Source of the DNA: Thermodesulfobacteriota bacterium
GTDB taxonomy: Bacteria > Desulfobacterota > Desulfobacteria > Desulfobacterales > C00003060
Reading direction: 5' to 3'
Length of the DNA stretch: 64,000 bases
NCBI GenBank assembly: GCA_034189385.1
Contig: JAXHVD010000004.1
Location: 64,001 to 128,000, forward strand
Below the pieces are notes generated by a model. The model saw nothing but the letters and a program-made list of their open reading frames with translations, ran no database searches and had not been told where the DNA came from. This document shows positions 43,901-64,000 of this stretch, in pieces (position 1 is the first letter of the stretch; each line of letters starts with the position of its first letter). The translations under genes and the position numbers were made by a program.

Positions 43901-43928
43901 AGTGTCCTTTTTGCCGAGGGCAAGGTTC

Positions 43929-44501
43929 ATGCCAGGTAAGCATGCAACAGTGCCTGCAGATCAGATTGAACGCAGCATTTACCTAATCCGTGGCGAGAGA
44001 ATCCTACTGGATAGTGACCTTGCCCAGCTTTATGGGGTCGAAACGGGCATATTGAATCGAGCGGTAAGACGAAATAGCGACCGATTTCCAGAAGACTTCA
44101 TGTTCCAGCTTACGGCTGACGAGGTGGAGGATTTGAGATGCCAAATTGGCACCTCAAAGAAGGGTCGTGGAGGCCGTCGTTACTTGCCTTATGCATTTAC
44201 AGAGCAAGGTGTGGCCATGCTTTCCAGTGTACTGAACAGTCCGCGTGCTATTCAGATGAATGTTGCCATAATGCGGACTTTTGTAAGACTTCGGCGGGAG
44301 CTGTCGACTCACAAAGAGTTAGCGGCAAAATTGAACGAACTAGAACGGAAGATCGAAAAGCATGACGAGAGTATTGAAACCATTTTCGAAGCCATCCGCC
44401 AGCTTATGACACCACCCGAGAAGCCCAGAAAGAAGATTGGGTTTGAAATCAAGGAAGGTCGCTCTTCTTATAACAAGAGCTCAAAGAGAAAAGGCAAATG
44501 A
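43929..44501 (+). CDS. ORF6N-domain DNA-binding protein
   Basis: LDSDLAQLYGVET, RFPEDFMFQL, PYAFTEQGVAMLSSVL, KKIGF. Confidence 0.9.
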   Translation: MPGKHATVPADQIERSIYLIRGERILLDSDLAQLYGVETGILNRAVRRNSDRFPEDFMFQLTADEVEDLRCQIGTSKKGRGGRRYLPYAFTEQGVAMLSSVLNSPRAIQMNVAIMRTFVRLRRELSTHKELAAKLNELERKIEKHDESIETIFEAIRQLMTPPEKPRKKIGFEIKEGRSSYNKSSKRKGK

Positions 44502-44624
44502 CTCCAGAGACTTTGGGAGCTCTGTGAGAGGATGAGACAGCCCGAAGGGCACGACAGTAATCGTGGCGACAAGTCGTCGCCATGATAGTCTGTGGCCGTC
44601 TGTGTGCTTCTGTGGCAGAAAATA

Positions 44625-44861
44625 TGCGTTCAAGCTTGTCCTTGAGGCCATTGCCGAGCTCATGGCACCGCCTGAAAAGCCCAAGAGGATTCACCCCGTT
44701 AAACGTCGGTTTGCCGTATGTTCTTCAAGAGCCATATGGCGCACAGCCGGAGCCGCATGTTAGCACTCAATTCTCCTGCCCTGTGTTTAACTGGGGAGAT
44801 AGGTTTTGAGGTGAAGGAAAAGCGTGCGGCCTGCGGTAAGCGTAAGAAAGTGAAAAACTGA
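44625..44861 (+). pseudogene. ORF6N C-terminal remnant interrupted by a palindromic MITE
   Basis: FKLVLEAIAELMAPPEKPKR | insert CACCCCGTTAAAC...GTTTAACTGGGG | IGFEVKEKRA. Confidence 0.65.
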
Positions 44862-45075
44862 GGCCCGGTGGACCGGTGAAGTGGTGTGGATATCTGAAAA
44901 ATGAGACAAGTCATGGCTTTGATTCAACCTATGATCAGTGACGGGACAGATCGTGAACATGATCGACAAGCCGAATAATTACTATTTAAGATCTGACCCT
45001 GGGCTCTCCCCTTGGCTCTCCCATGGGGGTGCCGGATGACCGGTATTCCTACCATGAGGGCAGAACAAAAGAAAT

Positions 45076-45825
45076 ATGAACAATTTCGATCGCTACAAAA
45101 TGCTTGAAGATGCCGTGCCGGCGAACATCACCTCTGTTCCGTCCGAGTTTGTCCTTCACAAAGATGGTGCGCTAAGAGTAGTGTGGGCGCCTTGCGATTA
45201 CATAAATACCGGTGCCCGTATTGCTATCGTCGGGATCACTCCAGGTTGGCAACAGGCCCAAATCGCCTATACAGAAGCCCAGCAAGCTCTGAAAGATGGC
45301 CTCAGCTATCCAGAAGCCTGTAACCGCGCGAAAGGGCAAGCAGCATTCGCCGGGACTATGCGAAAGAATCTCATTGCGATGCTTGATGATATCGGTGTCG
45401 GCCAAGCCTTAGGCATTCCCTCGACAGTTGAACTCTTTGGTAGATCGCATTCCGACCTTCATTCGACGTCGGCATTACGTTACCCGGTGTTTCGTGACAA
45501 CAAAAATTACACAGGTCACGTCCCAAATCCTCTGAAGCATCATTACCTTCTTTCGATGATAGAGACTTTACTCACGGAAGAGCTAACGGCTGTATCACCC
45601 GCTTTGGTTGTTCCTCTTGGAAAGGCTGCGAATGCGTGCGTTCAACACGCGATTTCAATTTGTCAGGCAAACGTTTCCATCTTGGACATGTTCCCACATC
45701 CCTCAGGAGCAAACGGACACCGCATGCGTCAGTTCAAAGAGCGGAAGAAGACTCTGTTGGGAATCGTCGAGAATTGGCAAGCTCAGGCTAATGCATCCGA
45801 CACAAAAAGCCGCCGGGCTCATTAG
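45076..45825 (+). CDS. Uracil-DNA glycosylase superfamily protein
   Basis: IVGITPG, VPLGK and PHPSGAN motifs. Confidence 0.75.
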   Translation: MNNFDRYKMLEDAVPANITSVPSEFVLHKDGALRVVWAPCDYINTGARIAIVGITPGWQQAQIAYTEAQQALKDGLSYPEACNRAKGQAAFAGTMRKNLIAMLDDIGVGQALGIPSTVELFGRSHSDLHSTSALRYPVFRDNKNYTGHVPNPLKHHYLLSMIETLLTEELTAVSPALVVPLGKAANACVQHAISICQANVSILDMFPHPSGANGHRMRQFKERKKTLLGIVENWQAQANASDTKSRRAH

Positions 45826-45959
45826 CGGTCTTGAATTTCAGGAGCATGAGGTTTCAAGAGGGGAAAAGAAGAGCGTCACATCTTGCTTATTAATTATTGG
45901 GCATGTGCAGCAAGTGCCGGTGGCGTGGGCAGTAGGCGGGCTTCGGAAATATTAGCGCA

Positions 45960-46255
45960 TGTCAGAAAATGGGCAGGCTCACCCTGCGCAGTAAGGTGCA
46001 GGTGAATATCCAAGGGATGCTTTACTGCCTGGTGTACAATATTGAAAAGAACATCGACTCCGGAAAGAGCTATACTATGGTGCGACCATCAGAGGAAATC
46101 CGGACGGAAGTCTACCCCAAAAGCACAATGAGGAGGGCGCGGCATCTGTTTTGGCTCCTCGAACATGGCGAACAGCCATTTTTCCGAAAAGCCATAGCTC
46201 ATCTGACAAGTTGCGGGGATGAAAGCCATCTCGCGAGGCGTTTTTCGACAGTCTC
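45960..46255 (+). mobile_element. IS1182-family transposase 3' remnant and right end
   Basis: RLTLRSKVQVNIQGMLYCLVYNIEK resembles the IS1182 C-terminus; ends TTTTTCGACAGTCTC. Confidence 0.6.
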
Positions 46256-46281
46256 GTTGGCTGGTGGGGAGGAAATTGAGA

Positions 46282-46665
46282 GTGAAATCGGTTTATCCAG
46301 AGATCTCAGCGGCATGTACCCGTGCAGATACCGGACTCTGGGGAGCATTCGAGCGTAATCAGCAAACTGATGCTAGAGTCTCTGACGGGGGGAAACTCAT
46401 TTTCCCCGAGTATCGCGGCGGCTCCCTACGAGTGAGTGAACAGGAAGCCCGCTTCGCTTTCGTTGAGGCGCTATGCATGGGGCCGCTTCTGTACTCAGTC
46501 GAGGCACCAACAAGTAAACTCTATCAGTTCACCGGCAAGTCATCGCTCTCGGCCCAAACCGATCTTGCAATACATAATGCGGCTGGGGCTCGTATCTGTA
46601 ATGTGGAATTCAAGGCTAAGGGGAGCCCGGGGAAGGGGAGCCCGGGGTCGCATCTTAATTATTAA
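46282..46665 (+). pseudogene. Truncated cassette gene, possibly PD-(D/E)XK nuclease-like
   Basis: RVSEQEARF...SVEAPT...TDLAI...NVEFKA, then cut by a GGGAGCCCGGGG repeat. Confidence 0.45.
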
Positions 46666-46805
46666 TTATTGACATTTTCTTCCGGCCAGATTATCCTGCC
46701 TTTCAAAGAAGCACTCAGCCATCGGGCCCAAGAACTGAAGTCACATCCCCGAAGCTGACCGGCTCCTTCAATTCATAGCATCTTCCATATCGAGGGGGTG
46801 GTTCC

Positions 46806-46915
46806 ATGGCCCGTCCGTTGCGCATAGAATATGCAGGTGCCTTTTATCATGTCATCCATCGAGGAAATGCCGGAGAAGCGATTTTTCGAACCAAGCGTGA
46901 CCGAAAATTTGCGGG
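46806..46915 (+). mobile_element. RAYT / IS200-like Y1 transposase N-terminal fragment
   Basis: MARPLRIEYAGAFYHVIHRGNAGEAIFRTKRDR. Confidence 0.8.
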
Positions 46916-47136
46916 ACGCCCTTTTCTTTTGCAGTTTCGGCATTTCACGCGAGCTATTCTGTGGGAATCTTCTTGACTGTTCCTTCCGACCAAACCGATC
47001 CTTTACAATACCGACAGATGTTGATAGCTTTGAATTAGTGGGATCTGTCCAACGATCTTCGTTTCTGTTCAATGATTGGAAGGGCCCGGAAATACAGCAA
47101 TCTTTGAAAGATGAGGGATTACCTTAGGAGGGTTTC

Positions 47137-47367
47137 ATGACCGATTTACTTAAGAAAATAGAAGATGAGGCCCTTTCGCTCCCTCGGCAGGAGCGCGCCT
47201 TTTTGGCTGACCGCCTGCTGAGCTCTCTTGATGAAGATGTGCTCACAGACGTAGATGCCGCCTGGATAGCCGAGGCCGAGCGTCGGTATGAGCAGTACAA
47301 GAAAGGAGAGAGGCCTGGCATTGCCGCACAGGAAGTGTTTGCCGAAGCTGATCGTCCGTTGAAATGA
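47137..47367 (+). CDS. Addiction-module antitoxin component (TIGR02574-like), orphan
   Basis: ALSLPRQERAFLADRLLSSL...AAWIAEAERR. Confidence 0.8.
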   Translation: MTDLLKKIEDEALSLPRQERAFLADRLLSSLDEDVLTDVDAAWIAEAERRYEQYKKGERPGIAAQEVFAEADRPLK

Positions 47368-47426
47368 CCCCAATCCCAGGTAGCTGTTAGGTCCAATTTG
47401 TAACCCATTGTAGGAAATTACGGAAA

Positions 47427-47663
47427 ATGACCAACTACACTGCAAAGTATACCAAGATTGACTCCGGTTACATGGGACAGTTGGTGGAATGGCCTGAGGT
47501 TGTCACCGAAGGCCAGGATCTCGAGGAGTGCCGTTCGATGCTACGCGATGCACTGAATGAGATGGTGCTCGCCTATCAACAGATGGGGAAGGAGATTCCT
47601 CCTGGAAACGCGCTTATAGAGCAACTGCCCATAGAGGTCCAACATGTCGGTCAGGCGACGTGA
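47427..47663 (+). CDS. hicB: HicB-family antitoxin
   Basis: EWPEVVTEGQDLEECRSMLRDAL. Confidence 0.85.
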   Translation: MTNYTAKYTKIDSGYMGQLVEWPEVVTEGQDLEECRSMLRDALNEMVLAYQQMGKEIPPGNALIEQLPIEVQHVGQAT

Positions 47664-47832
47664 TCTCGTCGGGCACTTGGAGAAGAACGGTTTCCATTTG
47701 CTGAGGGAAGGTGGCAACCATTCCATCTATACGAACGGAACCAAGGTCGTTCCCGTCAAACGCCACAGACACCTTGATCGGATCACTGCAAACGAAATCT
47801 GCAAGCAGGCCGGTCTCCACCCTAAGTTCTAA
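47644..47832 (+). CDS. hicA: HicA-family toxin
   Basis: LEKNGFHLLREGGNHSIY...PVKRH...ICKQAG. Confidence 0.88.
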   Translation: MSVRRRDLVGHLEKNGFHLLREGGNHSIYTNGTKVVPVKRHRHLDRITANEICKQAGLHPKF

Positions 47833-48162
47833 CCAACCCCCCAGCCTAATCTTCAGGACGAGTGAGAGAGAACCATGAGGGTCAGATCTTAAATCTTAAT
47901 TATCGGGACCTCCAAGAAAGCATTCTCGGGAGAGAGATTCGAGGACCAGTAGTACACTTTGGGGATGATCGGTGTTTTCTTTGCGGTCGGACCATGGCAA
48001 GTGGTTGAGATGCCGCGATGTGGTGCGGAAAATGGCCCTTAAAACAGCCTTAGAACGCAGTTTTTGATATTGGAATTGGACTTCTAAGGAAGAGACATTC
48101 GAAACGAACATCATGACCTAAGCCTTCGGCTCCATACCCAGCATGGGTGGTCTCTTCCTGGA

Positions 48163-48387
48163 CGGGGTCTCTTTTGCCTTGGCACAGCTGGCTTTCTTTG
48201 ATCATAATCGTGTCATCTTGGAAGACTTGGAACATAGTGATGATGAAAAACGATATTGCTGTCTTGGCAAAGTCTGCGGTGGGGTAATACCTGTAAGATT
48301 TACATACCGAAAAAAATCAGAATAATAGGCGCCGGATATTGGCGGAAAGGAAAGAAAATATATGAAAGGGAAAATAAAATACACTGA
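48163..48387 (+). pseudogene. brnT: BrnT toxin, 5'-truncated and frameshifted
   Basis: GVSFALAQLAFFD...HSDDEKRY...VRFTYR, then a frameshift in an A-run to IRIIGAGYWRKG. Confidence 0.75.
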
Positions 48388-48589
48388 TGAGCCCATTGGA
48401 AAGGTGAAGGTTATTCCTGACTTTCTTCCTTCACCTGAAGAACTAGCTCTAAAGGACGAAACCGTTAAGGTCACAATTGCTCTCAGCAAAACGAGCGTTG
48501 ATTTCTTTAAGAAAGAAGCAAAAAAATATAACACGCAGTATCAAAAAATGATTCGCAGGCTCTTGGATGAGTATGCGGCCCATCAATAA
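48362..48589 (+). CDS. BrnA/CopG-like antitoxin
   Basis: DFLPSPEEL...KVTIALSKTSVDFFK...YQKMIRRLLD. Confidence 0.8.
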   Translation: MKGKIKYTDEPIGKVKVIPDFLPSPEELALKDETVKVTIALSKTSVDFFKKEAKKYNTQYQKMIRRLLDEYAAHQ

Positions 48590-53862: not shown

Positions 53863-54132
53863 ATGACGGGTCTTTTATTCATTGACGATGAGGAAGGGGT
53901 GCGCCGCTCAATCATTCGAGCGCTAAAAAGGGAACCATATACCGTCTATACAGCTGAAGAAGGGGAGACAGGAATCCGACTGGTTGAAAACGAACCCTCC
54001 AAGATCACCATTGTGGTTTCAGATTACAAGATGCCAGGGCTTGACGGCCTAGAGACGCTGGCACGCATTGCCGCTATCAACCCTGAAGTCACCCGCATCT
54101 TGCTCACCGGTTACGCCACCATGGAAAGATAA
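53863..54132 (+). pseudogene. Response-regulator (REC) gene truncated by element insertion
   Basis: FIDDE...SDYKMPGLDG...LLTGYATME then an immediate stop and a switch to AT-rich sequence; the REC fold is incomplete (no KP motif). Confidence 0.8.
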
Positions 54133-54207
54133 ATAAAAAAGACATGAATAATATAATAGTGCTCTCGCTGTAGCTGAATCAAATTATAAATAGTTTATAT
54201 TTAAAGC

Positions 54208-54248
54208 AAAGTCTGCCGTTAATTTTTCGGTGGGCTTTTGTATTTTTT
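54208..54248 (+). terminator. Terminator insulating the element from dusB read-through
   Basis: AAAGTCTGCCG...CGGTGGGCTTT followed by a T-rich tail. Confidence 0.65.
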
Positions 54249-54260
54249 GGGGGAAATTTT

Positions 54261-54288
54261 TTCGACTCTTCAAAAAGCATGTTATAAT
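54261..54288 (+). promoter_or_regulatory. Sigma70 early promoter with extended -10
   Basis: TTCGAC-16 bp-TATAAT preceded by TG. Confidence 0.7.
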
Positions 54289-54423
54289 ATTATGAGGAGC
54301 TGGAGATAACGTAAGAAGCTAAAAAAAACAATTCTGAAGGCCTCGTCGGGGAATCAAACTCCTAAGCGTTATCTCCTCCCGGCGGGGCCTTTTTTATTCT
54401 GTGATGAAAGGAGGTGAGAGAGG

Positions 54424-54582
54424 ATGGACGAAACTTTAGAAGAACGAGAACAGCTGGCCCACGAGGAAGCGAAACTCATAGCTCACGAGGAGGCTAAACA
54501 GGGCCAAGATTATGAGGAAGCCTATGAGGAAGCCTATGAGTCAGCATACAACGAGGCGTACCAAGAAGCTATGACGGACTAA
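54424..54582 (+). CDS. 52-aa highly acidic protein (not in the ORF track)
   Basis: MDETLEEREQLAHEEAKLIAHEEAKQGQDYEEAYEEAYESAYNEAYQEAMTD; RBS AAAGGAGGTG. Confidence 0.75.
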   Translation: MDETLEEREQLAHEEAKLIAHEEAKQGQDYEEAYEEAYESAYNEAYQEAMTD

Positions 54583-54600
54583 AGCAAAGGAGGAAATACA

Positions 54601-54966
54601 ATGAGTAACGAGGAAGAAGTAGAAAGAAGACATTGGTTGGAAGGGTATGTCAATGATGAAGATATGTCCGGTGAACCCACGTCACCGGCGGAGAAGCAGT
54701 ACGAAGATGCGCTTTGGAAAATGGGCTTCCAATATAGTCTTACAGATACAGGTTTAGTCTATAAAACTTGGGATGCTCAAGAGGCCACAGAAATCGTGGC
54801 TAAGGTGGCCGCGGTCGTTAGGGAATTGGAATTGGACGAAGATGCGTTTAGCCTGAGTCACACTATTCAACCCCAGTGCCCAAAGTGCGGAAGCCTTGGC
54901 CGTTTTTCTGATTTTCATTGTAGGGATTGTGGGGCTGAACTTTTGCCGAGTGAGTATTGTGACTGA
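54601..54966 (+). CDS. Acidic protein with C-terminal zinc ribbon
   Basis: CPKCG...CRDCG; RBS AAGGAGG. Confidence 0.75.
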   Translation: MSNEEEVERRHWLEGYVNDEDMSGEPTSPAEKQYEDALWKMGFQYSLTDTGLVYKTWDAQEATEIVAKVAAVVRELELDEDAFSLSHTIQPQCPKCGSLGRFSDFHCRDCGAELLPSEYCD

Positions 54967-55060
54967 ACTACTACAATAATTTTTGGGTGGGCGCTCCTGG
55001 AGGGTTTTGCCAGTCTCCTTCCCTTCGGGGGCGCTCCACCACACGATGAAAGGAGGTGAA

Positions 55061-56108
55061 ATGAGTTTTGAGTCAGTATTTCCACCAGACTATAAGCCGG
55101 GTTTGACTGTTCGGGGTGGCCCAGGAAAGCACAAAAGGATGGCTGAGAATCGCCAAGAAACGCTCACGAAGATTCGGGAGATCGACAGCCAAATTGACTT
55201 CAAGATGACGCTCCGTGGCTGGTGTTACATGTTAGAGCAAGAATGGGGCTTGGCCAAGTCCGACTTCAGCACTAAGGCAATGCGGTATTTCGGTGAGTAC
55301 CGAGAACGTGGGCAACTTCCCTTGGACTTCTGCCTCGAAGACGACAACCGAGCATTCAGCCAAGGAGAATCGCTTGTCGATGCCGTAGCACCTGATGACT
55401 TCGTGCAAGACGCTTTTGCTTCCTTGCGCGACATTCACACGTACTACAAGCCGCTATCCTTTTGGAACAACCAGAAATACTATATCGAGATGCTAGTTGA
55501 AAAGGCGGACCTCGTTTCACTATTCCGACCTATCTGCTCCAAGTTCAATATCCGAATTGCTAACACTCATGGAAATGCCAGCTATGGTCAGCGCTATGCC
55601 ATGATAAACCGCTTTCGGCAACATGAAGAAGAAGGTCGCAAGCCGGTGCTCTTGTATTGCGGCGACCATGACCCAAGTGGATTGATGATAAGCGATAGGC
55701 TAAAGCATAATTTCAAAAAACTGGAACTGGCAACAGGATGGAGCCCAGACAATCTGCTCATTGACAGGTTTGGGCTAAACTATGACTTCATTGAGAAGCA
55801 CAATCTTTCTTGGATTGACAGCTTGATAACGGCTTCTGGCGAGAATCTCGCTAGCTCGCGACACCATGACTATAAAAAAGCCTACGTGCAGAGCTACATC
55901 AATGAGTATGGTTGCAGAAAAGTTGAGGCAAATGCCATTGTAGTGAGACCGGAGATGGGGCGTAAACTTTGTTATTACAATTCTGCGCTACATCGACCTT
56001 CATGCCGTTGAGAATTTTAAATCTCAGATAAAGGATTCACAGCGAGTAGTTAGAACTTTAACTGAGGATATCCTTGAAGCTGTGGCGGTGGCGTTTATTC
56101 CATCATGA
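55061..56108 (+). CDS. Spo11/Top6A-like (WHD plus Toprim) protein; +1 frameshift near 55970
   Basis: MTLRGWCY WHD motif; Toprim MLVEK...G...YCGDHDPSG; VEANA; the +1 frame continues VITILRYIDLHAVENFK to TGA at 56108. Confidence 0.7.
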
Positions 56109-56223
56109 AGAGGCATTAGGAAAAAGGAGGCAAGAGAGATTTGGTACAAAAAAGTACCAAAGATAACCCCAAGAGAAAACACACAAAACCGGAGACAAAA
56201 AAACAGTTAGAGGAGGCAAGACA

Positions 56224-56790
56224 ATGACAAAAGACGGTAAAAAAGCGGTGGTCGTTTGGCTAGGAACAGATCCATTTCATGCTGAGAAATGCTGGCCTGC
56301 CGCCGCGAAGAGGCTTGGTTATGATGTTATCACTGAGAAAGACGTTAGGCAAGGTATTAGTCTGATGACAGCCGAACACCTTCAAGTACCACGTCGCAAT
56401 TACGAAGATCACGGTATAGACACACCTTACAACCATTGCAGGCAGTGCGGATGCTTTTTATGGGATGCACCGGGGCCATCACTGCTGGAAAGATGGAGCA
56501 AGCTATTTTTAAAAGCACATGAAATCGCTCAAAAGGTGGGCATGTCAATCGGCAAATACTACACTGCCCGAAATGGCTGGATAAGTGGTCGCACCTGGAC
56601 GGATGCTGAAGCGATAGAGGCAGTATGCCAAGACGAATATATAAGTGCACTGTGCGATTGGCTATTTATTATAAACGGTGAAGACATCCCCACTCTCGAA
56701 AAACCAGTCAAGGATGCCCGAATTACGCCTGATATTATTGAATGGCAAGATAGGGCGAATCAATACTTGGCAGATATTGGTCGGTGGTAA
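56224..56790 (+). CDS. Hypothetical protein
   Basis: 188-aa ORF with GAGGAGG RBS and CRQC motif; followed by a terminator-like hairpin at about 56833-56872. Confidence 0.7.
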   Translation: MTKDGKKAVVVWLGTDPFHAEKCWPAAAKRLGYDVITEKDVRQGISLMTAEHLQVPRRNYEDHGIDTPYNHCRQCGCFLWDAPGPSLLERWSKLFLKAHEIAQKVGMSIGKYYTARNGWISGRTWTDAEAIEAVCQDEYISALCDWLFIINGEDIPTLEKPVKDARITPDIIEWQDRANQYLADIGRW

Positions 56791-57045
56791 GGCTATTGGG
56801 TGAGATGATTAACACATCACACTCAACACACATGGGGCGGCGCTCAGAGTTCTGGTGCCGCCTCTGTTGTTTGGTGCTTTGTTGGGAACCGTGAAAAACG
56901 ACAAAAAACATGAAAGCTCTCTTTTTGGGCGCACTTTTTTTATAAGTATTTGTTTTTACTAGCTGTGAAATTAGCCTTGTCAATAATGCAATCTTCGAGA
57001 TCGCTTATTATATTAAAAATAAAAAGATTAAAGAGGTGTAGTCAA

Positions 57046-57243
57046 ATGAAGTCAAGGCTATGGGCAGTGTTACAAAACAGGAAACTGGAACAAAAGAAAG
57101 TCGCCGCCGAGCTGGGTCTGCACCATGTACGGTTGAACCAACTGTGCAACGGTAGGGAGCCGACCAGATTGGAGGCGAAAAAAATATGTGAGCATTTTAG
57201 TATGGATGAAAGCGACCTATTTTCACCAGTCCTATTTTTGTAA
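57046..57243 (+). CDS. XRE/Cro-like HTH regulator
   Basis: LEQKKVAAELGLHHVRLNQLCNGREP...KICEHF; RBS AAGAGGTG. Confidence 0.8.
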   Translation: MKSRLWAVLQNRKLEQKKVAAELGLHHVRLNQLCNGREPTRLEAKKICEHFSMDESDLFSPVLFL

Positions 57244-57255
57244 GGAGCACAATTT

Positions 57256-57417
57256 ATGAACACAGACTATCTTCAGGAGAAATACCCGCTTCAACGCGTT
57301 GCGGAAAACCCTGTAAGGAACGGCCCGGGGATTGTGTGGCTGCTCGCGAAGCAGATCGAGACCAACAGCCTATTGAAAGCGATTTTGAAAGAACTAAAAA
57401 AAGATACAGATGAGTAA
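57256..57417 (+). CDS. 53-aa hypothetical protein
   Basis: MNTDYLQEKYPLQRV...LLKAILKELKKDTDE; RBS TAAGGAG. Confidence 0.55.
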   Translation: MNTDYLQEKYPLQRVAENPVRNGPGIVWLLAKQIETNSLLKAILKELKKDTDE

Positions 57418-57551
57418 AACAGTTTTCACTGGACAAGGCTTTGCAAACCTTGCCCACAATCACCAACCGCCGCAGTCGGTAGGAATGACTTCTGACCTCC
57501 TAGTCTGGGTCCTTCCTCCGGCTGTGGTCACAATCAGACTAGGAGGAAGAT

Positions 57552-58166
57552 ATGCGAAGGAATGGGAAACAACCGAACGAGATCAACAAGGCCAAGATTG
57601 CTCAAGCTAGGAGCCAGCTTCTTAGGTGGCCAAAAGATGTGGTCAGCGCGGTTGTGGGTGACGTTTTCGAGATACTTGCACAAGAGGATGAGTTCTCCGC
57701 TGTCCGGGTTTCTGCTAAACCCTATAAATGGCCACAGTGGATTTACAGTACCAAAAAGCTTCGACACGTGATGAACAGGACTAGATTTCAAGACATGTAT
57801 AATTATCTTTGGCTCAACAAGTTCCCCTTCATCAAGAGGCATTCACACGTGTTCCTGAAGGTGGGGGCTGATGCAGCCGACATCCTGGTGAAGATACGAA
57901 CAAAGGACATGGCCAACAACCTGGACCCTCCTTGTTCGAAACAACTCGTGAATAAGTATTTGGCCTATTTCTCGCGTATCGGGATAATCGAAAAACGGGG
58001 CATCATTGCGTATCAGAACGTGTATTGCATCGCGAAACAGGGAAGCTTTCATGAGGTGATTTCAGACAATGGGACAAAACAGGTGGTGGAAAGGCCAAGA
58101 GTTCTGCCACTGCTTACGGCGAAGGCAAAGAGGGAGATCGAAGGTTTTGACACTATTTTCTCATAG
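57552..58166 (+). CDS. Putative replication initiator / wHTH DNA-binding protein
   Basis: Basic protein with wHTH-like SKQLVNKYLAYFSRIGIIEK; immediately followed by an origin-like palindrome cluster. Confidence 0.45.
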   Translation: MRRNGKQPNEINKAKIAQARSQLLRWPKDVVSAVVGDVFEILAQEDEFSAVRVSAKPYKWPQWIYSTKKLRHVMNRTRFQDMYNYLWLNKFPFIKRHSHVFLKVGADAADILVKIRTKDMANNLDPPCSKQLVNKYLAYFSRIGIIEKRGIIAYQNVYCIAKQGSFHEVISDNGTKQVVERPRVLPLLTAKAKREIEGFDTIFS

Positions 58167-58169
58167 CTC

Positions 58170-58400
58170 TCATTATTCAGTACTGAATAATGAAATTATT
58201 CAGTGTGAAGTCACTGAATAATGGGAATCTTTGGGATATATTATAATAACTAGGGCTTAAGCAATGGCGGACCTTAATGTAATATATAATCTAATTCAAG
58301 TACCCTGTATATATATCAGCTTTTCCTTATACACTTTTCTCCTTCCAAGTATTCAGGAAGAAAAGTGTATAGGAAGTGGCGCTAAAGCGCCACCTCCTTT
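58170..58400. repeat. Origin-like cluster of palindromes
   Basis: Perfect 24-bp palindrome TCATTATTCAGTACTGAATAATGA; ATTATTCAGTG-6-CACTGAATAAT; TATACACTTTTCT/AGAAAAGTGTATA; GTGGCGC-TAAA-GCGCCAC; AT-rich spacer. Confidence 0.75.
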
Positions 58401-58529
58401 TATTTATTCGTTCTGCTTAAATAGAGGGAGTGGTCCTGAATGAAACACAACCCGGTCCTGAAGAACACTAATCGACAAGGTGTCGCGCGCCGCTGCTGCT
58501 GGTGGTGGCAAAGGAGGAACTAGCAGACA

Positions 58530-58685
58530 TTGAAGACTACAGATCCCACTGAAAAGATATGCTGGCGCTGCCGCAGGGAGCATGAAGGACCATGCCCCTA
58601 TGCCGCCCATGCAACCGTTGACGACAAACACACCGGCGCTGATTGCTACATTGCGCCGGGCACAGAGGAGGACAAGAAGGAGTGA
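58530..58685 (+). CDS. 51-aa Cys/His-rich small protein (TTG start)
   Basis: KICWRCRREHEGPCPY...ADCY; AAGGAGG upstream; GTGA overlap with the next gene. Confidence 0.45.
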   Translation: MKTTDPTEKICWRCRREHEGPCPYAAHATVDDKHTGADCYIAPGTEEDKKE

Positions 58686-58831
58686 ATAAAAGTACGGGAC
58701 GATGGATCGAGCCCATTGTAAAACCGGACCCCGAAGTGCAAGAGCTTCAGAAACGCTCGGGCAACTTTGACCCCCCGGTCAAGAGAAGACCAGGAAGACC
58801 AAAGGGGTCAAAGACCAAGAAGAAGAAATGA
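58682..58831 (+). CDS. Small basic AT-hook protein
   Basis: KRRPGRPKGSK; ATGA overlap with terL. Confidence 0.55.
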   Translation: MNKSTGRWIEPIVKPDPEVQELQKRSGNFDPPVKRRPGRPKGSKTKKKK

Positions 58832-60558
58832 TTGTACCCAAGATAGACAGACCAACCACACAAAGACTCCTGAAGATCCTGCGGGCTTTTATCACAAATG
58901 AGCAGGAGCAGAGCATGTGGCCCGTTTTGGATTTGACAGTGGACATGCTTCTTGATGACCCAGAGTTTCACTATTACTACACTGACACGTTTGAGTTTTA
59001 TTTGGAAAATGGCATTCACAACCGGATGGCACTCCATGCTTTCATTCGCCTTTTCTGTGGGTTCGACATTACAAGGCGGGGGGGCGTCGGAAAAGAGCCG
59101 TTTTGCAGTCCCTTTGATTTTGTGGCTGTCTTATTCTTTCAGGAGTGCCGGGATGCGCTGGCCATGGGATCACGAGCCAGCGGCAAGACTCTTGCTCTGG
59201 CCGTTTTGATTTACTTGTGGGCACTTTTCTACCCCGAGTGCGAAACGACAACCTGCGCTGCGACTAAGGATCAGTCATCGCGGGCTTTTTTGTATTTGCG
59301 AAAACTATGTACGAGCAGCAATGCAAGCAACAAACTTCTTAGTTCAAAGCCGACCGCTAAAGCTATCAAATGGGGAAACGGCTCTAGCGTGGAAATGACT
59401 ACTTCAAGTTTGGAGGGAGCGAATGCGCTTCATCCCAGCAAACTCCTTGCCGACGAATCGGAACTTTTGGACTGGAGGGTGGTAGAGGAAATGCTCTCGT
59501 GTGCTATATCACAAGGGGACATACAGGCGAGCACGGTCTTTCTGTCAAGTAGGAAGTTTCTGGACGGACCATTTCAAAGGCTGCTTGAGATGGCAAAAGA
59601 AAATCCCAAGACATACAAAATCTTCAATTGGAGTGCGTGGCAGGCCGTTGAAAGGTGTATGCGGAAATGTGACGACAAGGTTCATGGCAGGTGCGAACTG
59701 CAAGAGCTATGCAAGGGGCGGCTCCGAAAGAGTGACGGCCACTTGGACCTAGAAGACTTCAAGGCGAAGGTACGCCTTCTTTCCGATGAAGTTCTAAAAA
59801 GTCAATGGTTGAATCTCAAGCCGGTTATCACTTCGACGGTGTTCAATAACTATTATGAACCGGAAGTCAGTCTGATTTCACAGCCCGAAGATTTTCATTA
59901 TGATTTCACAGTCTGCGGTATTGACTGGGGGTCAACCAAGGCCAGCAATCTTGTTTTTCAACGATGGCTCGTGGATGTGAGCGACCTTCGTGACGATGCC
60001 ACGGGCCATGTGGATGTTGATAGTTATAAGAAGCCGACACTGTATCTTGCCTATGAATACCGGTCCGCCACTTCGGACATGGCTAGGCTGGCCAGGGCTA
60101 TACTTGAAAGCCCCTATAGAGAGGACTATGAATTGATCTTTGTGGACCCTTCTGGCAAGAGCCTGCGAAATGAACTGGCGCGTTTTGGGATAGAAACAGA
60201 GACGCCACTGGTCACGGGAGTGCAAGAAGGAATTGAGGTTCTGAAGGGGTATCTGAAACCCTATTGGTCAGGCAGGAAGCGCAAGTCGTGCCTATACATT
60301 TTAGACGGTTATTATCACGGTGAGCCAGACCTGGAGCCCACGCACAAAGAGCTTCAACTGATGCGTCACGTCACAAAGCCAGACGGCACCTTGTCACAGA
60401 ATATAGTGAAGGCGCATGACCACGGTGTTGACGCGGCACGATACGCCATAACTGCCGTGCGAAGCGTCATTGAGAGCCTTTATGCCCAGGACTTTGACGA
60501 GGATTTGGGACAGCTTGAACAGTTTGCCGAGACTTTTGGGATTGAAATCTTGGCCTAG
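58828..60558 (+). CDS. terL: Phage terminase large subunit
   Basis: Walker A GSRASGKT, AATKDQS, Walker B LLADESE; RNase H-like nuclease GIDWG, FVDPS, DHGVDAARY. Confidence 0.85.
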   Translation: MIVPKIDRPTTQRLLKILRAFITNEQEQSMWPVLDLTVDMLLDDPEFHYYYTDTFEFYLENGIHNRMALHAFIRLFCGFDITRRGGVGKEPFCSPFDFVAVLFFQECRDALAMGSRASGKTLALAVLIYLWALFYPECETTTCAATKDQSSRAFLYLRKLCTSSNASNKLLSSKPTAKAIKWGNGSSVEMTTSSLEGANALHPSKLLADESELLDWRVVEEMLSCAISQGDIQASTVFLSSRKFLDGPFQRLLEMAKENPKTYKIFNWSAWQAVERCMRKCDDKVHGRCELQELCKGRLRKSDGHLDLEDFKAKVRLLSDEVLKSQWLNLKPVITSTVFNNYYEPEVSLISQPEDFHYDFTVCGIDWGSTKASNLVFQRWLVDVSDLRDDATGHVDVDSYKKPTLYLAYEYRSATSDMARLARAILESPYREDYELIFVDPSGKSLRNELARFGIETETPLVTGVQEGIEVLKGYLKPYWSGRKRKSCLYILDGYYHGEPDLEPTHKELQLMRHVTKPDGTLSQNIVKAHDHGVDAARYAITAVRSVIESLYAQDFDEDLGQLEQFAETFGIEILA

Positions 60559-60570
60559 GAAATAGAATCA

Positions 60571-61341
60571 ATGGCAGATTATGACGAGAGAAAATTTGAA
60601 GAGGTTCTGAGCCTAGTAGGCAAAGGCAACACCCTGGACACGGCATGTTACAGCTCTGGAATCGAACCGAGGCGAGTGAGAAGTTGGATCAAAGCCAACA
60701 GAGGAACCTGCGGGTTGAAATATAAGCAAGCCAAGGCACGATTCATAACGGAGCTAAGAAGTCAGATGTTGGCAGCGCCGCCCGGAGACAAAAGAAACGC
60801 GCTTGCCAGGGAATTGGCTGCACATGATCCCAGCTTTGCGAGGAGCGTGGCACAACAGCACAAGCGGTTGATCGAGCAGGAAGACAAGGAAAGGGACAAG
60901 GCACTTGAGCAAACACTTGGCAGGGTTGATTATGGCTTCGCGGGATGGAAGCTGAAGAAGCGGGACGGTGTAAGGAAGCTAAAGGCGGGCAATCTTGACG
61001 AGAAGGCACTTAAAACAATCTGGTCTTGGAGTCTGGCCGGAGAAGACAAGAAGGACATCAAAGAGAGATACGACTTCGAGCAGAGGATTCTTGGAAATGC
61101 TACCAAGCAGAGCATGAAACAAGTAGCAGAAAAAATAAAGGCGCTGATGGTGGGAAGGAACAAGATGAGCAAGGACGAGGAGCGACTTCTCACTGAAAAG
61201 ATAGTCACAGCAAAAAAGACCAAGAGTCCTTATAAACTGAAGGATTCAAATGGAGGGGTGATAGAGCTTCCAGCGATTGAGCTAGAGTGGAAACAGGAAA
61301 AGAAAAAGACAGTCAGGAGAAAGAAGAAAACAAGAAGATAA
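60571..61341 (+). CDS. TerS-like N-terminal HTH protein with basic tail
   Basis: FEEVLSLVGKGNTLDTACYSSGIEPRRVRSW resembles small-terminase HTH; adjacent to terL. Confidence 0.5.
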   Translation: MADYDERKFEEVLSLVGKGNTLDTACYSSGIEPRRVRSWIKANRGTCGLKYKQAKARFITELRSQMLAAPPGDKRNALARELAAHDPSFARSVAQQHKRLIEQEDKERDKALEQTLGRVDYGFAGWKLKKRDGVRKLKAGNLDEKALKTIWSWSLAGEDKKDIKERYDFEQRILGNATKQSMKQVAEKIKALMVGRNKMSKDEERLLTEKIVTAKKTKSPYKLKDSNGGVIELPAIELEWKQEKKKTVRRKKKTRR

Positions 61342-61416
61342 AGAGAGAATAGCGTGATTCGAAACGCTGGCAGGGATGTGCCTCCTTTTTCGGAAGTGGC
61401 CTCCTTTTTGGGTTGG

Positions 61417-61482
61417 CTAAACAATTCTCAATAGGATTACAAATCCAATAAGAACGTTTAATGCAATTATGTAATTAAACAT
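61417..61482 (-). CDS. 21-aa hydrophobic peptide, candidate type I toxin
   Basis: MFNYIIALNVLIGFVILLRIV; RBS AAAGAGGTG; promoter TTGACA-17-TATCTT at 61525-61553; 13-bp 5'/3' complementarity of the transcript. Confidence 0.7.
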   Translation of the reverse strand: MFNYIIALNVLIGFVILLRIV

Positions 61483-61951
61483 AAGCATCACCTCTTTGAA
61501 AAGGATTTCCCTGCCAGCGTGCATAAGATACCAAAGGTAGGAAGTTTTGTCAAGGAGGGGGAAGAATAAGAAAGGATGATATAGTGATTGAAGATGGGGG
61601 GTATATGATAGTGGTCAAGAAGCAGGCACTAGAAAAATGCCTATATACCACACAAATAGAAAGCTTTTCTGAGTGCTCTATTTGCTACATAGGGACTGAG
61701 AGGGAAACCACATAAGAACATGGAAGCAGAGACAGGTTATAAGCACTTAAAATATATTAGAAAACAGGAGGAACAGCTTTCAAGTCTACATATTGGGGTG
61801 TGGCTACTCAGCAAGTCCACGCCCAGCTTGTATTTGAGAGCGACACCATCGGCAAACATAAGCTACAAAAGGCTTTACAAATGACATCGGAACATATTAA
61901 AATATGGCTGTTTCAGAGCCTAAAACACGCAACAGGAAAGGGGCAAATCGG

Positions 61952-62638
61952 ATGAAAACAGCCGTCGGTTATGTCAGGGTTTCAACCATCGAACAGGCCC
62001 AACAGGGTGTTAGCCTAAAGAACCAGCAGGCGAAGATCAAGGCATGGGCGAAGCTCAACGGATATGCTTTGAAAGACGTATATCGTGACGAGGGAATCAG
62101 CGGAAAAGCTATGGACAACCGGGACGGACTACAGAGTGCGCTCAAGAGTGTGGGCAAAGGCGATGCGCTGGTTGTTTACAGCCTGTCGAGGATGGCCCGG
62201 TCAACCAGGGATGCCCTGGCTATCGCGGAGGCGCTACAACACAAGGGCGCAGATCTGGTGAGCGTCACTGAGCACATAGATACGACAACTGCGGCGGGGA
62301 AAATGGTGTTCCGAATGCTGGCCGTGCTCAATGAGTTCGAAAGGGACCAGGTGTCTGAGCGCGTCACACAGGCGCTGGCCTACAAGCGCGGCAAGAATGA
62401 ATGGGTGGGCCGTGTACCGTACGGTTTCAGGGTACATGCTGGAAAGCTGGTGGAGGACACAGAACAGATTGAAAGCATCAAGAAGATGAAACGGCTTCGG
62501 AAAAGGGGCAAGACTCTGCGCGACATTTCAAAGACGTTTGGGGTATCACCCGCGTATGTTTTAAGGGCTGTAAATGTCAACCTGAGGACGCTGAAAGCTA
62601 AGTATCTCAACGGATCACGGCTTCAGCCTGTTTATTAA
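61952..62638 (+). CDS. Serine recombinase (resolvase/invertase catalytic domain with a short C-terminal region)
   Basis: GYVRVST.EQ, DEGISG, VYSLSRMAR, EFERD, GRVPYGF. Confidence 0.92.
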   Translation: MKTAVGYVRVSTIEQAQQGVSLKNQQAKIKAWAKLNGYALKDVYRDEGISGKAMDNRDGLQSALKSVGKGDALVVYSLSRMARSTRDALAIAEALQHKGADLVSVTEHIDTTTAAGKMVFRMLAVLNEFERDQVSERVTQALAYKRGKNEWVGRVPYGFRVHAGKLVEDTEQIESIKKMKRLRKRGKTLRDISKTFGVSPAYVLRAVNVNLRTLKAKYLNGSRLQPVY

Positions 62639-62902
62639 ACAAATGGTTTTTAAACAAAAAGGGTTTGAAATGGACTTAAACAGATTAAATGTGAAACGGT
62701 CACAGTGATATGACAACCGGTCAAACTGCCCCAGGCAACCAGCTCTTCCCACTCCGCAGGGCGAGGGACGGGGGCGCCGTCTTACATCACCACCGAAAAT
62801 CAAACGGGCGATGGACGGGGCACTCCGCAGAAAATTAAATTATATTAGCTGTCCCCGAAGCACAAGGAAAGGAGAAATACTACAAGAGGAGCGTGAAGCA
62901 CA

Positions 62903-63235
62903 ATAGCCAGTAAAGACACGTATTGCATATTCTGCAACAGACCCGAGCCACAGTACACCCCGCCAAACGCAGACACAGAAATCGTCTGTAGCCGGTGCGT
63001 TCAGCGCCTAGTAAACGCCACCCAGGAACAACTCTTGACCCTGTACAAGGTAGCACTGGCACGGGACTAAGCAGGTAGCCGACGAGCTGGCCGGAAGCTG
63101 GCTGCTACCGGAAACGCTAGAACAAATAGAAGAGGAGGAAGGAGACTGTGAGCAAGAAACCGGAGAGACTAGACCAGATCTGGAGCGAGCGAGACCTTTG
63201 CCGTCGTCTAGACCTGCCCGTCACCAAGAACGGTA
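62903..63235 (+). pseudogene. Decayed C4 zinc-finger gene
   Basis: ATA in place of a start after GAGGAG; YCIFC...VCSRCVQ; apparent frameshift near 63066. Confidence 0.5.
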
Positions 63236-63363
63236 AAAGCGCGAGGCTGGGGTATTGGATCAGGGGCGGCCTGAACTACGTCGAGAAGTCAGGCAAGCGG
63301 TATTTCTTTGAATCTGATGTCATTGACTACCTGTGGAGCCGATATGAGAACCGAGACGAATAA
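63148..63363 (+). CDS. Excisionase/MerR-like HTH protein
   Basis: SERDLCRRL...LGYWIRGGLNYVEKSGKRYFFESDVIDYL. Confidence 0.65.
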   Translation: MSKKPERLDQIWSERDLCRRLDLPVTKNGKSARLGYWIRGGLNYVEKSGKRYFFESDVIDYLWSRYENRDE

Positions 63364-63521
63364 GGGCTGTAAGTTGCAAACCACACACACGGTTGGGGGT
63401 AGGTTTTGACTAGCTTTTATATAACTTTAAGGGGGTATTTTTCCGGGTTAATAGGGTTACATGCCTTTTCCTGAAAACCCCCGTTAAACAGCGGATAAGA
63501 AGCTTTTACGGCGTATTTACA

Positions 63522-63758
63522 ATGACTCAACAACAGACAGACAGGATCATTCTCAACGGCAGAATCACGGAGAACCAGGCCTTCGGCAAGTGGGCAGTGG
63601 AGCTGAACCACCGCTCCGGCTGCACGACCTTGGCGTCGTGTTACGCATCCGGAAGACTGCGGCTTGCGTCAATCCGCATGCTGCCCGGTGATTGGGTGAA
63701 AGTGGAGCTTTCGCCCTATGACCTGAGTCGAGGCCGGATTCTATATCGTTTCAAATAA
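63522..63758 (+). CDS. infA: Divergent translation initiation factor IF-1 homolog
   Basis: [36 protein letters not shown] matches the IF-1 C-terminal signature. Confidence 0.8.
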
Positions 63759-63958
63759 CTACTCTACCCAGCGCAGCATTATCGTGGTGGCTTCCTCGCT
63801 GTGTCTGGTCCGGCAGAACCTAAGTCAGCTGTCGGAGGATTCATAAGGAAGCCACTAACACGCACGGTCGCAACCTCCAAAACCGGGGCGGCCCGTGCCA
63901 CCGCAGTTAGAATCGGGCCGCCCCATACTTTTAAACTGACAAAAGGAGTGAAAGAAAA

Positions 63959-64000
63959 ATGACAACAGAATATTGGCAGATACCGGCGGATCAGGATTTC
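63959..64000 (+). CDS. Start of a further element gene (partial)
   Basis: AAGGAGTG RBS, then MTTEYWQIPADQDF to the window end. Confidence 0.5.
   Translation, partial: MTTEYWQIPADQDF

Follow-up and report, generated by a model that had tools for sequence, protein, structure and literature searches.

What is the gene for a terminase large subunit (TerL) doing in a mobile element that has no phage head to fill? The question is raised by a 64,000-nucleotide stretch of a Thermodesulfobacteriota bacterium (GenBank assembly GCA_034189385.1, contig JAXHVD010000004.1, positions 64,001 to 128,000 of the forward strand), referred to here as the window, and by the integrated element that begins near its right end and runs on beyond it. 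An initial annotation, made from the letters of the window, had suggested either a packaging-only parasite that borrows helper capsids or a rearranged or decaying prophage. The element is cleanly bounded and headless. The best explanation is that it spread as a headless, packaging-only phage satellite with its own motor and is now ageing; this reading is given an even chance of being correct, and it describes an element of which one copy is in hand.

The element measures 15,176 bp and spans 54129-69304, in a numbering continued past the window end at 64000 (the position on contig C34 of this 4.13-Mb, 90% complete genome is that number plus 64000). A crossover core, AAAG, lies at 54125..54128 (attL) and is repeated at 69301-69304 (attR). 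The left boundary of the initial annotation, 54128, is exact, falling at this core and at a junction with a host gene. The 5′ piece of that gene (53863..54128, plus strand) encodes the receiver domain of a response-regulator adenylate/guanylate cyclase (PF00072, E 6e-15). The open reading frame (ORF) that starts at 53863 terminates directly past 54128, and the cyclase-domain remainder picks up 15 kb later in a 3′ piece that extends to 70049 (PF00211, E 1.9e-29). The two halves join in frame at the AAAG core to give a protein that matches the version of congeners, and the gene is uninterrupted (335/336 aa), with the same neighbours, in both of the congeneric genomes searched (G507 and G445). 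Integration disrupts a two-component cyclase, and excision would restore that gene. The G+C content of the element is 48.4%, compared with about 51% for the contig. The sequencing run in which the element is best represented is a marine metagenome. A single 15,799-bp Logan contig covers both ends, is identical to the assembly and has a depth of 37, equal to that of the flanks; the absence of a head module is therefore not an assembly gap. That run is possibly the source of the assembly, so the contig demonstrates continuity rather than independent support. A junction that bypasses the element (depth 6.5, 25-base side) probably derives from some related organism and was left out of account.

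No ORF scanned between these ends matches a portal, protease, capsid, connector, tail or lysis family. The initial annotation had recorded the lack of adjacent portal and capsid genes, and had named a portal-capsid-tail module directly beyond the window as the finding that would overturn its proposal. The lack extends to the right end at 69304. Over the 5.3 kb of right arm from the window end to that point, the genes are those of a 226-aa orphan, an Arc-like repressor, a PEP-CTERM protein and a large serine recombinase, along with small ORFs; a head module past the window is rejected on these grounds. Genome-wide searches for portal and tail (tape-measure) genes with PF04860, phrog_21, phrog_12, PF05133 and PF10145 returned nothing from this 90% complete genome, and their controls worked; searches with phrog_113 and PF12236 matched no control genome, which makes their blanks uninformative. 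A profile of our own, built from the proteins that follow this TerL clade, has no match genome-wide, and the only PF05065 capsid match in the genome sits in another element. The portal, capsid, tail and lysis genes that a complete temperate prophage carries within its attachment (att) sites are thus absent.

The TerL gene itself (58828..60558, plus strand, 576 aa) is readily recognized. It matches phrog_2 (E 3.7e-10), the large terminase of PDB entry 5oe8 (E 2.3e-5) and our own TerL profile (E 5e-149, positions 13-502 of 523), and has 797 matches among 1.84 billion representative proteins. Its Walker A residue K120, Walker B residues D209-E210 and nuclease residues D366, D440 and D535 are invariant in a seven-sequence alignment (A1), giving the N-terminal ATPase and the C-terminal RNase H-like nuclease with three acidic residues that define this family. 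Judged by these residues, the protein is a genuine terminase large subunit with its catalytic motifs kept; the structure model is too poor to use (pLDDT 47). The start codon is overlapped by a 49-aa basic ORF (58682..58831, plus strand) that has no PHROG match, occupies the slot usual for the gene of the terminase small subunit (TerS), and is labelled AT-hook for its GRP motif. Elsewhere in the genome, a phrog_2 match on contig C45 was rejected as a TerL: it is helicase-like by sequence (of the RecD type, we presume), has host-like surroundings and leaves our own TerL profile silent.

The closest relative of the window TerL is P0003, 46% identical and encoded on an ENA contig of 2,568 bp. A TerL phylogeny, which the initial annotation had proposed as a check, sets the two apart: in an IQ-TREE analysis of 28 of the 84 sequences they form their own lineage with 100/100 support and a stem of 1.13, and in a FastTree analysis of all 84 sequences the pair is sister to 33 phage-type TerLs. 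The midpoint-rooted IQ-TREE drawing places the pair apart from all others, and its exact position is not fixed. Searched with an alignment of the two sequences, metagenomes and IMG/VR yielded no close locus. Within the phylum, TerL has one full-length match, in G270; the ORFs there read as a prophage that includes portal-like and capsid-like genes. None of the 18 other proteins of the locus matches any of 2,267 ORFs around TerL relatives (BLASTP E 0.01; best phmmer E 0.008), and nothing resembling the gene that follows TerL in the element is found upstream of TerL in the 15 nearest-clade loci inspected, where no TerS is evident upstream at all. The element is therefore not a trimmed copy of those phages. 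Several of the phage contigs that carry the nearest relatives are 95-112 kb long, and 12 nearest-clade loci (L021-L027, L029, L040, L047, L052 and L086) have a conserved 190-240-aa ORF between TerL and portal.

Only 12 bp separate TerL from the following gene, ORF256 (60571..61341, plus strand), a 256-aa orphan with an N-terminal helix-turn-helix (HTH) and a long helix. ORF256 is likely a TerS, to judge from several weak signals that converge: a match to phrog_1482 (E 0.015), scores of 0.88-0.89 to TerS clusters in the atlas, and Foldseek top matches to TerS proteins among the BFVD viral models (E 0.01) and to the Sf6 TerS in PDB (E 0.43), the structure model being confident over approximately residues 1-110. 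ORF256 has no homolog among 5.8 billion proteins and clusters only with itself. The succession of TerL and a TerS-like HTH gene reported by the initial annotation is confirmed in its order and in its TerL, the TerS identity being likely. This order is not seen in the nearest phages, in which an unrelated 200-aa ORF or the portal comes after TerL. Homology of ORF256 to the conserved 190-230-aa post-TerL ORF of those phages was considered and rejected, since that ORF is without any match in the genome.

Besides its terminase, the element holds integration, replication and maintenance modules, whose presence favours the satellite reading. The integrase is the 604-aa large serine recombinase beyond the window (67511-69325, plus strand), which has Resolvase, Recombinase and zinc-ribbon domains (PF00239, PF07508 and PF13408) and reads across the right end of the element; it is not the small serine resolvase/invertase at 61955..62638 (plus strand; PF00239 E 4.9e-41, phrog_125). 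PHROG matches in the right arm are to phrog_3180 (E 6e-9) and phrog_95 (E 3e-90). A candidate recombination directionality factor is a Xis-like HTH protein (63148..63363, plus strand) with a weak match to PF12728 (E 0.043) as its only one. A 204-aa winged-helix (wHTH) protein (57552..58166, plus strand) is likely a replication initiator of the RepL or phage O-like kind: its atlas feature score is 0.93 to clusters with RepL on 17-25% of their members, and its structure matches lie below TM 0.5 by query. Directly behind this Rep-like gene, four exact 10-bp repeats in alternating orientation fill 51 bp (58172..58222) and are likely origin iterons or an operator. With one mismatch permitted, the expectation is 1.04 copies against the four seen, a number that 5 of 200 shuffles attain, and four of the six exact copies in the 4.1-Mb genome fall within this segment. 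On the minus strand at 61355..61545 lies a locus that we take to resemble type I toxin-antitoxin loci, in which a 21-aa hydrophobic ORF (61417-61482) sits within a folded RNA with both ends paired. The predicted fold has a z of -5.03, with 0 of 200 shuffles as good, so that the type I trait of a short hydrophobic peptide encoded on strongly structured RNA is present in prediction. No Rfam family matches this locus; the sole Rfam match obtained, mir-2068, scores 27.7 bits against a cut-off of 99 and is due to chance. The frames of both recombinases, the Rep-like gene, TerL and ORF256 are open.

A satellite life cycle can be proposed from these parts. Upon infection by a helper phage, the Xis-like protein and the large serine recombinase would excise the element as a circle and restore the host gene. 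The wHTH Rep protein would fire at the four repeats behind its gene, the small resolvase could resolve multimers, and the toxin-like locus may keep the circle from being lost. ORF256 would then recognize element DNA, which the element TerL would cut and pump into helper proheads, probably as concatemers given that the nearest phage relatives include the 95-112-kb contigs. With both TerL and TerS on board, the element would be free of the helper terminase and need only a compatible portal. Its size and layout are in keeping with described satellites (PMC10085698, PMC4936722).

Several findings weigh against this satellite reading. A portal follows TerL in 71 of the 80 relative loci that have at least 3 kb of downstream DNA, and 22 of 28 nearest-clade loci have a downstream match to a portal profile, the other six ending within 1.3 kb. 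The profile was built from downstream ORFs of 47 of the same loci, so that the count is partly circular and the loci redundant; PHROGs independently assign portal families on those 47 (24 to phrog_21, 12 to phrog_113, and others). Homologs that are always embedded in ordinary full prophages had been named initially as a second ground for abandoning the satellite idea, and this turns out to be half the case: portals are the rule among the relatives, but the homologs with readable downstream DNA are at most 37% identical to the window TerL, which keeps to its own lineage with P0003. The end branch of the window TerL is long (1.44 compared with 0.39 for P0003 in IQ-TREE), and the protein keeps 66 of 96 near-invariant columns, compared with 80 of 96 in P0003 and an average of 98% in phage members. 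By BLOSUM62 score, random changes do as well as the 17 private to this protein in 726 of 2000 runs, so these are not unusually conservative. In favour of the satellite reading, the 576-codon frame is still open, and in simulations of neutral point mutation to an equal loss of conserved sites, a rough model without indels, it stays open in only 4 of 2000 runs. Taken with the non-conservative changes, this suggests that the gene was kept open while its constraint changed, consistent with co-option or partial relaxation of TerL.

Doubt also attaches to other parts of the element. The TerS assignment is weak, none of the four signals for ORF256 passing its threshold. The Top6A/toprim-like phage-type gene (55061..56108, plus strand; phrog_6247 E 2.7e-48) looks frameshifted near 55968: its main frame stops at 56011 and drops similarity approximately 40 residues short of the ends of three homologs, and the C-terminal helix appears to resume in the +1 frame from about 55971. 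In a three-sequence profile, positions 15-293 are matched by the main frame and positions 295-325 by the +1 frame (E 0.026); the tail alone gave no match in pairwise BLAST. A circular junction, which had been put forward as a check, is absent from the assembled contigs of three runs, in which rare forms are dropped, and element depth equals that of the flanks. The same gene order, which the initial annotation had hoped to find elsewhere, was not encountered in the genomes, IMG/VR and metagenomes searched, and the element stands as a single copy. This search covered TerL, Rep and Xis in 400 other genomes of the phylum (the Rep-like and Xis-like proteins have no match there), the zinc-finger frame described below, Top6A and the large serine recombinase in 150 genomes of the order, and IMG/VR, JGI metagenomes, GTDB contigs, GenBank phages and PLSDB plasmids; as a set of samples and pattern searches it does not prove absence. 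Searches for relatives of Rep, Xis, the zinc finger, the large serine recombinase and ORF256 return only the query itself. Of eight element proteins checked for clustering, seven are alone in their cluster and the other is missing from the collection; no helper phage was identified. Finally, DNA of phage-inducible chromosomal islands that form capsids (cf-PICIs) and phage DNA enter mutually exclusive capsids (bioRxiv 2022.09.08.507074), so that docking of a diverged TerL on a foreign portal would be a demanding step.

The decaying-prophage alternative of the initial annotation ranks below the satellite reading and is considered unlikely, although signs of decay were indeed found. Here, a prophage integrated by its large serine recombinase would have lost the head, tail and lysis block by one or more deletions, perhaps aided by the resolvase, and the terminase genes would be decaying leftovers. 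Such a history would explain why TerL stems from a phage lineage with a neighbouring portal, its long branch and non-conservative changes, the likely frameshift of the Top6A-like gene, and a start-less zinc-finger frame. The lack of an excision signal in the contigs and of a second copy anywhere searched points the same way. Against this, not a scrap of portal, capsid or tail remains between the ends, the recombinases and att ends look intact, and the TerL frame is open despite deep divergence. The close spacing of TerL and ORF256, followed by an ordered toxin-like locus rather than a broken gene, also speaks against it, and the other element genes have no match around related phage TerLs. Were the element such a remnant, it would be ordinary.

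The terminase might instead have been repurposed, a decidedly improbable reading in which TerL, together with ORF256, acts as a decoy or dominant-negative of incoming phage packaging or processes the element's own DNA, and the element moves otherwise or hitch-hikes. Fast non-conservative change in an intact frame suggests an altered function, and a satellite inhibitor of phage TerL exists in the Gpi protein (PMC11417361) of the PLEs (elements resembling phage-inducible chromosomal islands). Related TerLs for which no portal was detected also occur elsewhere, as split halves or as lone genes (see below). A pure decoy would have no need of the two catalytic centres, both of which are kept; the defence-system scan gave only partial JetD toprim matches, on the Top6A-like gene, and there are no conjugation genes among the element ORFs.

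A second element was observed in the same genome, on contig C17 (52773-61542, or L019:5773-14542; minus strand, 8,769 bp), within a comM/YifB-like gene. It encodes a resolvase, an 85-aa ORF, a TerL (phrog_9, E 3e-62), a ribbon-helix-helix (RHH) protein, an HK97-type protease, a major capsid protein, a 264-aa Rep-like ORF and a large serine recombinase. No portal was found within it or elsewhere in the genome, no relatives were found, and its depth is at host level. Outside this element, C17 carries a repeat (L019:2479-2627) that is common to many contigs of other organisms in three runs, with a summed depth of up to ~1,300. That the two elements, the 8.8-kb one supplying TerL, protease and HK97-type capsid, share packaging in one cell is barely credible: each is a serine-recombinase element that lacks a portal, encodes a small resolvase, a terminase and an RHH repressor, and is present at host depth in this genome, but a portal was found for neither, the C17 TerL belongs to another family (phrog_9), and the elements share no DNA similarity, their Rep-like proteins aligning only at E 0.063.

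How, then, does the window element compare with known satellites? Phage-inducible chromosomal islands (PICIs), including the SaPIs, pathogenicity islands of Staphylococcus aureus, resemble it in their size of ~15 kb, site-specific integration, regulator, replication gene, TerS-like gene and cargo, and in having no head, tail or lysis genes (PMC10085698). A site-specific integrase within an att-bounded element in the ~10-20-kb range is a PICI-type trait that the element shares. It differs in its full TerL, PICIs carrying TerS at most and using the helper TerL, and in the TerS-like gene that comes after TerL. AlpA and primase families went undetected in Pfam, PHROGs and NCBIfam scans of element proteins; the regulators present are of XRE and Arc-like types instead of the AlpA/MerR/Stl set, and a wHTH Rep protein takes the place of the primase-helicase. 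In addition, the large serine recombinase lies at the far end and reads into attR, and the target is the protein-coding cyclase gene. With cf-PICIs, for which terL is a marker (PMC10085698), the element has in common its satellite size and a TerL of its own in a lineage apart from phage homologs (bioRxiv 2022.09.08.507074, PMC10085698). Of the own-terminase trait of cf-PICIs, TerL is present and TerS is indicated by the weak signals above. Unlike them, the element has no capsid, protease, portal, head-tail connector or HNH gene between its ends, and its TerL is of the phrog_2 kind; the small elements with a capsid gene that were encountered here match phrog_9 instead.

The PLEs of Vibrio cholerae (PMC11417361, PMC6002521) offer an analogy in their large serine recombinase, Rep initiator, lack of an own head module and manipulation of packaging. 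According to the same papers, a PLE uses the helper TerL with an inhibitor and specifiers, whereas the window element encodes its TerL; general family scans annotated none of the PLE markers (capR, nickase, gpi/gps), and no search with PLE profiles was made. Marine virion-encapsidated integrative mobile elements (VEIMEs) and PICI-like tycheposons are likewise marine and small, some with serine recombinases, and among the genes labelled in tycheposons are a small serine recombinase, a topoisomerase and xis (PMC9618062; bioRxiv 2020.12.28.424599). These sources describe VEIMEs as travelling as concatemers, apparently in unmodified helper capsids. As described there, VEIMEs and tycheposons carry terS or a capsid gene, with TerL presumed to be supplied by the helper, unlike the element, which encodes TerL itself.

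Satellites described so far take one of two routes: they redirect the helper TerL, or they make a head of their own together with the portal that fits it. It is tempting to suggest, very tentatively, a satellite class that holds the entire motor (TerL and TerS) and no head, would dock on the portal of a ~100-kb helper and would fill unmodified heads with concatemers. Such a class would supply the missing state between PICIs, with TerS only, and cf-PICIs, with a whole head, and may have arisen repeatedly from one TerL superfamily represented by the window element, islands with split terminases and lone chromosomal TerLs; the portal-less C17 element with TerL and capsid would be a further intermediate. 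If so, an element with TerL but no portal would be evidence that hijacking of the motor-portal interface between genomes is possible, which bears on terminase specificity. Model-based surveys would likely miss such elements, since the window element falls outside both the PICI and the cf-PICI definitions. A full-text literature search found no satellite with TerL and without a head; the supplementary gene tables on VEIMEs and tycheposons could hold TerL-bearing elements.

Several TerL loci in other genomes were noted in passing. Three genomes of one family contribute five loci (L012-L016; three in G009 and one each in G300 and G397), islands in which a TerL of 300-320 aa with the ATPase part only accompanies an HTH/TerS-like gene, with ParB-like genes nearby. 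These TerLs are more distant relatives, and no portal match was obtained in the five loci. L013 and L016 encode the nuclease half upstream, as a gene of its own (170 aa; our own profile E 1e-13). In L163 (9002-10579) and L166-L168 (L168:9746-11338), a full-length TerL homolog stands amid chromosome-like genes with no head genes seen, and in L168 a TerS-like gene (phrog_2538, E 3e-6) and a ParB-like ORF are found upstream of it. Five other genomes of the order have a phrog_9-type TerL, located in two small tyrosine-integrase elements with portal-like genes, in one prophage and in two loci that are too short to judge; none resembles the window element as far as their ORFs were read. L196 (5145-15900, in G457) and L197 (5689-15197, in G489) measure ~10 kb, carry a tyrosine integrase and include ORFs resembling HNH, TerL, protease/capsid and portal genes; on a reading of those ORFs they appear to be minimal cf-PICI-like elements with no evident head-tail connectors.

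The remaining genes follow the order given by the initial annotation, in which acidic ORFs, Top6A-like, XRE, Rep-like/origin, AT-hook, TerL, TerS-like, toxin-like, serine recombinase, Xis-like and IF-1 loci were all correctly placed. Two acidic early ORFs of 52 and 121 aa begin the left arm (54424..54966, plus strand; starts at 54424 and 54601), the latter with a C-terminal zinc ribbon (PF13248, E 3e-4, below cut-off). Relatives of the Top6A-like protein comprise 42 phage records and one genome of the order, in which this sole cellular homolog adjoins regulator, HTH and primase-like genes in a PICI-like layout, as read from the ORFs. A 188-aa orphan (56224..56790, plus strand), without family or phage match and a singleton cluster, precedes an XRE/Cro-type HTH regulator (57043..57243, plus strand; PF13443 E 1.1e-7, phrog_3). 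Promoter and terminator scans gave results near chance level. Downstream of the small resolvase, a CxxC...CxxC zinc-finger frame (62903..63070, plus strand) is without a canonical start codon, is possibly broken and has no homolog found. The IF-1 homolog (63522..63758, plus strand) shares 46.6% identity with the host's copy (contig C15) and passes the NCBIfam infA cut-off (TIGR00008, 69.3 bits against 61.15); it also matches an unnamed phage family (phrog_30201, E 1.8e-13).

The right arm starts with the 226-aa orphan (63959-64639, plus strand), after which, just past the window, a 23-bp tandem repeat and an AT-rich stretch (L001:12647-12740) form a candidate second origin-like or regulatory site. 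The PEP-CTERM cargo gene (65928-66770; PF07589/TIGR02595) and the Arc-like RHH repressor (67104-67259) are both on the minus strand. To the left of the element, window positions 43902-48589 hold a cluster of small mobile-looking genes, which from their translations we take to be ORF6N-like, transposase fragments, and HicAB-like and BrnT/BrnA-like pairs.

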